Positions 8,462 to 11,400 of a DNA stretch of 64,000 nt are shown here, in pieces. The DNA comes from Escherichia coli O157:H7 (lineage in GTDB: Bacteria; Pseudomonadota; Gammaproteobacteria; Enterobacterales; Enterobacteriaceae). The position numbers are program-made. The stretch is from assembly GCF_013167455.1 (NCBI RefSeq), contig NZ_CP038328.1. One strand, written 5' to 3'. The first letter of the stretch is position 1, and every line of letters starts with the position of its first letter.

Positions 8462-11400
8462 GCCCAGGAAGAAAGCCTCGGTGATAACAAACCGGCTGAC
8501 GATCTGCTGAACCTTGAAGGGGTAGATCGTGATTTGGCATTCAAACTGGCCGCCCGTGGCGTTTGTACGCTGGAAGATCTCGCCGAACAGGGCATTGATG
8601 ATCTGGCTGATATCGAAGGGTTGACCGACGAAAAAGCCGGAGCACTGATTATGGCTGCCCGTAATATTTGCTGGTTCGGTGACGAAGCGTAATAAACTGT
8701 AGCAGGAAGGAACAGCATGACAGATGTAACGATTAAAACGCTGGCCGCAGAGCGACAGACCTCCGTGGAACGCCTGGTACAGCAATTTGCTGATGCAGGT
8801 ATCCGGAAGTCTGCTGACGACTCTGTGTCTGCACAAGAGAAACAGACTTTGATTGACCACCTGAATCAGAAAAATTCAGGCCCGGACAAATTGACGCTGC
8901 AACGTAAAACACGCAGCACCCTTAACATTCCTGGTACCGGTGGAAAAAGCAAATCGGTACAAATCGAAGTCCGCAAGAAACGCACCTTTGTGAAACGCGA
9001 TCCGCAAGAGGCTGAACGCCTTGTAGCGGAAGAGCAAGCGCAGCGTGAAGCGGAAGAGCAAGCCCGTCGTGAGGCAGAAGAATCGGCTAAACGCGAGGCG
9101 CAACAAAAAGCTGAACGTGAGGCCGCAGAACAAGCTAAGCGTGAAGCTGCTGAACAAGCGAAACGTGAAGCTGCGGAAAAAGACAAAGTGAGCAATCAAC
9201 AAGACGATATGACTAAAAACGCCCAGGCTGAAAAAGCCCGCCGTGAGCAGGAAGCTGCAGAGCTCAAGCGTAAAGCCGAAGAAGAAGCGCGTCGTAAACT
9301 CGAAGAAGAAGCACGTCGCGTTGCTGAAGAAGCACGTCGTATGGCGGAAGAAAACAAATGGACTGATAACGCGGAACCGACTGAGGATTCCAGCGATTAT
9401 CACGTCACTACTTCTCAACATGCTCGCCAGGCAGAAGACGAAAGCGATCGTGAAGTCGAAGGCGGCCGTGGCCGTGGTCGTAACGCGAAAGCAGCGCGTC
9501 CGAAGAAAGGCAACAAACACGCTGAATCAAAAGCTGATCGTGAAGAAGCACGCGCAGCAGTACGTGGCGGTAAGGGCGGAAAACGTAAAGGTTCTTCGCT
9601 GCAGCAAGGCTTCCAGAAGCCTGCTCAGGCCGTTAACCGTGACGTTGTGATCGGCGAAACTATCACCGTTGGCGAACTGGCGAACAAGATGGCGGTTAAA
9701 GGCTCTCAGGTCATCAAAGCGATGATGAAACTGGGCGCAATGGCAACCATCAACCAGGTTATCGATCAGGAAACCGCACAGCTGGTTGCTGAAGAGATGG
9801 GCCACAAAGTTATCCTGCGTCGTGAAAACGAGCTGGAAGAGGCGGTAATGAGCGACCGTGACACGGGAGCTGCGGCTGAACCGCGCGCTCCGGTTGTGAC
9901 CATCATGGGTCACGTTGACCACGGTAAAACCTCTCTGCTGGACTACATTCGTTCAACGAAAGTGGCCTCTGGCGAAGCGGGCGGCATTACCCAGCACATT
10001 GGTGCATACCACGTTGAAACTGAAAACGGCATGATCACCTTCCTGGACACCCCGGGGCACGCCGCGTTTACTTCAATGCGTGCACGTGGTGCGCAGGCAA
10101 CTGACATCGTAGTCCTGGTTGTTGCTGCCGACGACGGCGTAATGCCGCAGACCATCGAAGCAATCCAGCACGCGAAAGCGGCGCAGGTACCGGTGGTGGT
10201 TGCAGTGAACAAGATCGATAAACCAGAAGCCGATCCGGATCGCGTTAAGAACGAACTCTCCCAGTACGGCATCCTGCCGGAAGAGTGGGGCGGTGAAAGC
10301 CAGTTCGTACACGTATCTGCGAAAGCGGGTACCGGTATCGATGAACTGCTGGACGCTATCCTGCTGCAGGCGGAAGTTCTGGAGCTGAAAGCGGTACGTA
10401 AAGGTATGGCGAGCGGTGCGGTTATCGAATCCTTCCTCGATAAAGGTCGTGGTCCGGTTGCTACCGTTCTGGTACGTGAAGGTACTCTGCACAAGGGCGA
10501 TATCGTTCTGTGTGGCTTCGAATACGGTCGTGTTCGTGCGATGCGTAACGAACTGGGTCAGGAAGTGCTGGAAGCGGGTCCGTCCATTCCGGTGGAAATC
10601 CTCGGCTTGTCCGGTGTTCCGGCTGCGGGTGATGAAGTTACCGTTGTACGTGACGAGAAGAAAGCGCGTGAAGTTGCACTCTATCGTCAGGGTAAATTCC
10701 GCGAAGTTAAACTGGCGCGTCAGCAGAAATCTAAACTCGAGAACATGTTCGCCAACATGACCGAAGGCGAAGTTCACGAAGTGAATATCGTCCTGAAGGC
10801 AGACGTACAGGGTTCTGTCGAAGCGATCTCCGACTCCTTGCTGAAACTGTCTACTGACGAAGTTAAAGTGAAGATCATCGGTTCTGGCGTAGGTGGTATC
10901 ACCGAAACCGACGCCACCTTGGCTGCGGCGTCCAACGCCATCCTGGTTGGCTTCAACGTACGTGCTGATGCCTCTGCACGTAAAGTGATTGAAGCGGAAA
11001 GCCTGGATCTGCGTTACTACTCCGTCATCTATAACCTGATCGACGAAGTGAAAGCGGCGATGAGCGGTATGCTGTCTCCGGAACTGAAACAGCAGATTAT
11101 CGGTCTGGCGGAAGTTCGTGACGTGTTCAAATCGCCGAAATTTGGTGCCATCGCAGGCTGTATGGTTACCGAAGGTGTGGTTAAACGTCACAACCCGATC
11201 CGCGTTCTGCGTGACAACGTGGTTATCTATGAAGGCGAGCTGGAGTCCCTGCGCCGCTTCAAAGATGACGTTAACGAAGTCCGTAACGGTATGGAATGTG
11301 GTATCGGCGTTAAGAACTACAACGACGTCCGCACTGGCGATGTGATCGAAGTATTCGAAATCATCGAGATCCAACGTACCATCGCTTAAGGTTTTTAGGG

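Follow-up and report, generated by a model that had tools for sequence, protein, structure and literature searches.

Does the infB gene of Escherichia coli O157:H7, for which the O157 RefSeq records annotate an 890-aa CDS only, encode one form of IF2 or three? The question arises in a window of 64,000 nucleotides (the whole stretch of DNA analysed, from contig NZ_CP038328.1, to which all positions below refer), for which a first-pass annotation had proposed that a GTG and an ATG are retained in frame within infB, that these are the sites used for the shorter IF2 isoforms of E. coli, and that one frame encodes three proteins. Translation of the ORF at 8717..11389 on the plus strand, which corresponds to full-length IF2-1 (IF2-alpha; 2673 nt, 890 codons, calculated mass 97.4 kDa), places the GTG at 9188-9190 in frame as codon 158 (Val) and the ATG at 9209-9211 in frame as codon 165 (Met). 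Starting from these codons and on the same strand, the nested CDSs would be those of IF2-2 (IF2-beta), at 9188..11389 with 733 aa and 79.7 kDa, and of IF2-3 (IF2-gamma or IF2-beta'), at 9209..11389 with 726 aa and 78.9 kDa.

The identity of the gene is supported by several concordant lines. The protein matches the NCBIfam equivalog TIGR00487 with 987.9 bits, against a cut-off of 424.4, and carries the Pfam set of IF2_N (two matches, the best at 314-364), IF2_assoc (56-94), GTP_EFTU (393-549), EF-G_D2, IF-2 and GTP_EFTU_D2; the nusA-infB-rbfA synteny is preserved within the cluster metY-rimP-nusA-infB-rbfA-truB-rpsO-pnp, and the RefSeq annotation of O157 genomes that are 100% identical over the gene agrees. 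The 2.9-kb infB region is identical (100%) in many E. coli O157 chromosomes and is present in 5423 of 5426 complete E. coli genomes, and IF2 has been reported to be single-copy in bacteria (PMC1780047). Both internal starts fall in the charged linker between IF2_assoc and the second IF2_N, after Domain I and before the second IF2_N/G-domain core, and the short forms would therefore retain all the catalytic domains.

Finding a GTG and an ATG is in itself uninformative, since infB contains 46 in-frame start-like codons (21 ATG, 20 GTG and 5 TTG, about one per 19 codons), and the argument was therefore built on homology and constraint. What raises these two codons above chance is their coincidence with the CDS starts of K-12, the presence of GTG at codon 158 in all 81 infB genes aligned, and a minimum of synonymous variation centred on codon 157. 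The record of K-12 MG1655 (NC_000913.3) holds three infB CDSs with a common stop (2673, 2202 and 2181 nt; 890, 733 and 726 aa); they begin at codons 1, 158 and 165, and the two shorter ones are YP_010283915.1 and YP_010283916.1, respectively. The gene studied here differs from that of K-12 at 20 of 2673 nt, of which 19 are synonymous and one leads to A103V, and the closest differences to the starts are 164 nt before GTG158 and 68 nt after ATG165. The interval 9025-9276 is free of differences, the N-termini of the isoforms are encoded identically, and the 200 nt upstream of infB are also the same, so that the initiation region has the very sequence that was mapped experimentally in K-12. An 84-nt probe of this region (9158-9241) is found with at least 99% identity in 5294 of 5425 E. 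coli genomes. As to the only amino-acid difference from K-12 IF2, A103V (C to T at 9024) sits in the charged linker of Domain I, present only in IF2-alpha and reported to be the part that binds NusA. The product name 'IF-2beta'' appears on all three infB CDS rows of the K-12 record, which looks like a labelling quirk rather than biology.

That codons 158 and 165 are the starts of the shorter isoforms, and that one frame gives three proteins, is borne out by the K-12 literature, in which CDS annotation, mutagenesis, Ribo-RET and N-terminomics agree and initiation has been mapped at all three codons. Tandem translation in K-12 goes back to the original work of Plumbridge et al. (1985), Nyengaard et al. 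(1991) and Sacerdot et al. (1992). The changes g474c, at the third base of codon 158, and t494c, at the second base of codon 165, together abolish the short forms; both codons must be mutated to remove them, and in the nusA-infB operon context IF2-2/3 are still expressed after a deletion that begins 14 nt before ATG1 and stops 32 nt short of GTG158 (Madison et al. 2012, PMC3334882). The same study reported that the short and long forms are roughly equimolar and that the isoforms differ in their MMS and UV phenotypes (PMC3334882). Ribo-RET gives initiation peaks at the previously characterised internal site of infB (Meydan et al., bioRxiv 10.1101/520783), and AUG1, GUG158 and AUG165 were named as infB starts in 2026 by TRAINSPOTTER N-terminomics (PMC13245402), the supplement of which lists peptides 158-175/176 with Met where the gene encodes Val158 (K-12 coordinate 3315543) and peptides 165/166-175 (MTKNAQAEK...; K-12 coordinate 3315522), in a K-12 strain background. 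The check proposed for these starts, N-terminal proteomics or initiation profiling, thus already has an affirmative answer in published K-12 data, and the peptides from both sites are encoded unchanged in the window. A homologous infB proteoform pair has also been detected in Salmonella Typhimurium, and the names alpha, beta and gamma, including 'IF2-gamma', are in current use (PMC12297416). The tandem infB starts of this sequence are therefore confirmed as a long-established textbook feature, already known. Our literature search found no O157/EHEC-specific mapping of infB initiation sites, so expression in O157 is argued from sequence identity with K-12, from which we infer that three IF2 isoforms would be made in O157 as in K-12.

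An independent view of the site comes from comparison with other species. We collected 80 infB loci from other Enterobacterales, spanning Enterobacteriaceae, Erwiniaceae and Pectobacteriaceae and with 77-95% identity in the first 420 residues, and aligned 81 sequences codon by codon, of which 71 are full-length genes. The homologues were retrieved with six patterns, one of which (NQQDDMTK) covers M165, so that the sample is biased toward keeping ATG165. Codon 158 is GTG in 81/81 genes, and codons 153-154 (GCG-GAA) are also invariant. Such fixation is unusual in the 71 full-length genes, where only 2 of 69 conserved Val columns (Val85 as GTC and Val158 as GTG) and 14 of 387 conserved columns with at least four-fold degeneracy use a single codon. 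In the same 71 genes, the 9-codon window with the least synonymous entropy in infB has codon 157 at its centre (0.088, where the gene averages 0.79), a minimum reached in 0.15% of the trials when the column entropies were permuted (p ~0.0015). Among the sequences that keep the amino acid, codons 153, 154, 155, 157, 158, 159 and 161 show zero synonymous variation, and the constraint, which peaks at codons 153-161, relaxes by codons 166-171. The conserved core of the initiation region lies at 9173..9199 (+), with codons GCG GAA AAA GAC AAA GTG AGC AAT CAA. Runs of at least 95% nucleotide identity were uninformative, being broken by variable amino-acid positions. Taken at the level of codons, the alignment points to selection on nucleotides exactly at the internal start, GTG158, beyond what the protein requires.

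Other parts of infB also vary little at synonymous sites. Val85 (8969-8971), the only Val besides Val158 with an invariant codon, is GTC in 71/71 full-length homologues, and codons 20-25 are low in synonymous variation, a usual feature close to a 5' start. The second-strongest constraint in the gene lies at about 11229-11258 (codons ~838-847), with 9-codon windows of ~0.27-0.30 in the 71 genes, and codons 841-870 have a mean synonymous entropy of 0.42 in a 30-codon bin, against the gene mean. One weak terminator-like hairpin was observed at 11207-11222, and no promoter-like site was found in 11100-11600; the constraint at codons ~838-870 could be due to strong codon selection, or to an RNA element or processing site preceding rbfA. 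Among the homologues, Affinibrenneria salicis (NZ_VYKJ01000001.1) has two infB loci, at 397476-401768 and 673361-677653, in opposite orientation, about 275 kb apart and identical over all 4293 nt, a pair explained either by a large and recent inverted duplication or by an artefact of the assembly.

How ribosomes would reach these codons is not explained by Shine-Dalgarno (SD) pairing. The calculated anti-SD duplex is -3.5 kcal/mol for GTG158 and -1.9 kcal/mol for ATG165, against -6.5 kcal/mol for ATG1; the SD-like motif of GTG158 is a weak GGA at 9175-9177 with a 10-nt spacer, neither codon has a strong SD 5-10 nt upstream, and several unused in-frame codons pair better than both. Sequence rules alone would consequently not pick GTG158 and ATG165, and an SD-driven mechanism was rejected, as SD strength fails to single them out. 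Local folding, a thermodynamic prediction as are all accessibility figures given here, is more discriminating. The A-rich stretch at 9194..9218 (+), which runs from just past GTG158 through ATG165 and is predicted to be unstructured, has the top predicted unpaired probability (0.095) among all 25-nt stretches in 8500-11600, and there are 21-23 A in 45 nt around the internal starts. In 71/71 full-length homologues the corresponding site ranks within the top 1% of the respective gene for predicted accessibility, and in 34/71 it is the gene-wide maximum, although the percentile is somewhat inflated because it takes the maximum over 27 neighbouring windows. Given the weak SD and the high predicted accessibility, the best-supported mechanism is a structure-poor, A-rich mRNA that would permit loading of 30S subunits, and low mRNA structure is, we infer, a probable determinant of internal initiation. 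The work of Laursen et al. from 2002 reportedly agrees with such a mechanism.

Put together, these observations are almost certainly explained by the classical tandem (intracistronic) translation of E. coli infB at GTG158 and ATG165. One mRNA would carry three in-frame codons at which ribosomes start independently, ATG1 giving IF2-1/alpha with the N-terminal Domain I, GTG158 giving IF2-2/beta and ATG165 giving IF2-3/gamma, both without Domain I. At the internal codons, 30S subunits would most likely load via the conserved, A-rich, unstructured mRNA, not through a strong SD sequence, and GTG158 would be decoded as formyl-Met by the initiator tRNA. The GTPase and fMet-tRNA-binding core would be common to the three isoforms, which would differ in Domain I, a domain that published work links with the binding of NusA and with phenotypes in DNA damage and replication restart (PMC12297416, PMC3334882). 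Initiation at the internal codons and the functional differences between isoforms are supported by the K-12 literature, while the frame, the identity with K-12, the conservation, the constraint and the predicted accessibility are supported by the present analysis.

Two other origins of the short forms deserve consideration, and each strikes us as highly improbable. If codons 158 and 165 were ordinary Val and Met codons, the short forms could be proteolytic products of full-length IF2, a reading that draws on the abundance of in-frame ATG, GTG and TTG codons in infB, on the weakness of the SD pairing and on the position of the site in a flexible, charged linker that would be protease-sensitive. 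However, peptides that begin with Met at residue 158, a Val codon in the gene, have initiation as their only possible source, initiating ribosomes are captured inside infB by Ribo-RET, and mutations of the start codons that are synonymous or nearly so abolish the short forms; on the strength of these peptides, of the Ribo-RET peak and of the mutants, proteolysis is ruled out for K-12. Neither the fixation of GTG for Val158 nor the local synonymous constraint would be explained by protein sequence. A separate, shorter transcript from a promoter inside infB has just as small a chance of being the source. Additional cold-responsive promoters have indeed been reported within the metY-nusA-infB operon (PMC6511841), but they sit upstream of infB, in or before nusA, and a search of 8500-9500 on both strands found no sigma-70-like match, where 0.3 were expected. 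Moreover, the persistence of IF2-2/3 after the deletion ending shortly before GTG158 fits initiation on the operon mRNA. No Rfam family overlaps the internal start site, the nearest being the rimP leader upstream and naRNA4 past the infB stop. Two antisense ORFs that overlap the site, 8876..9520 (-) and 8866..9195 (-), were rejected as the cause of the constraint because it is confined to about nine codons; antisense ORFs are expected in a GAA/GCN-rich repeat region such as this.

With tandem translation as the preferred reading, it can still be asked whether both internal codons are maintained by selection. It is possible, though we consider it rather unlikely, that only GTG158 is selected and that ATG165 initiates through its chance position in an open stretch, IF2-gamma being a tolerated by-product. 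ATG165 is kept in 68 of 81 relatives and is absent, with no in-frame ATG nearby, in the other 13, despite a retrieval that favoured M165, while GTG158 and the core upstream of it are invariant; it is replaced by AAA, CAA, GAA, ATT, TCG, GTA or GCA (Lys, Gln, Glu, Ile, Ser, Val or Ala), in Entomohabitans, Trabulsiella, Mangrovibacter, Shimwellia, Yokenella, Tenebrionibacter, Affinibrenneria (both A. salicis copies) and others. The synonymous constraint, strongest over codons 153-161 and weaker by 166-171, points in the same direction, as does the handling of IF2-2 and IF2-3, seven residues apart, as one functional unit (PMC3334882, PMC12297416). Against a mere by-product stand the retention of ATG165 in most relatives, the use of both sites and the detection of both products in K-12, the need to mutate both codons in the published constructs before the short forms are eliminated, and the location of the predicted accessibility maximum directly over ATG165. 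To some degree, the loss of ATG165 favours its use through the open region over selection of its own. It follows from the 13 absences that the third isoform is not universal and that use of ATG165 may not be under strong selection, and species without it would make at most two IF2 isoforms from homologous sites. A broader proposition, for and against which we find the balance about level, is that the selected unit is GTG158 together with the unstructured A-rich region, that ATG165 and IF2-gamma are dispensable and lineage-restricted, lost in ~15% of the sampled species, and that three proteins per frame are a peculiarity of the E. coli clade and not the ancestral state.

The remaining Rfam matches of the window are mostly those expected in this region of E. 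coli, namely the rimP leader (6607-6707, +), the S15 leader (12990-13104, +), the SraG sRNA, antisense between rpsO and pnp (13334-13505, -), and the RNase P RNA gene rnpB (57401-57777, +). Directly past the infB stop, in the infB-rbfA spacer, lies naRNA4 (CssrE, a REP-derived nucleoid-associated RNA; 11406-11476, +, 75.6 bits), and an ALIL pseudoknot (33571-33687, -, 121.5 bits), the element that stimulates frameshifting in insertion sequences of the IS3 family, indicates that the window carries an IS element.

The main weight of these results is on annotation, as the O157 RefSeq records list a single infB product where the sequence encodes the three isoforms annotated and mapped in K-12. The conservation analysis adds independent comparative support for GTG158 and reveals that some relatives lack the third start. 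The IF2 isoforms are of current interest because Domain I of IF2-alpha binds NusA (PMC12297416) and influences replication restart and recombination, to which the present finding adds nothing.

Compared with the tandem system of K-12, the gene, the operon, the codon numbers and the codons are all the same here; the differences are that the K-12 record annotates all three CDSs whereas O157 RefSeq annotates the longest only, and that A103V, in the alpha-only Domain I, is the sole amino-acid change. IF2 is not known to have a conserved N-terminal region between the E. coli and Bacillus subtilis lineages, and the internal sites of B. subtilis infB are therefore not positionally homologous to those described here. 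Nevertheless, the B. subtilis gene likewise gives two IF2 isoforms, alpha and beta, from in-frame starts (PMC1780047). Within E. coli, clpB, mrcB, cheA and speA also produce a long and a short protein from one frame through an internal start detected by Ribo-RET, but infB differs from them in having two close internal starts and, with these, three products.
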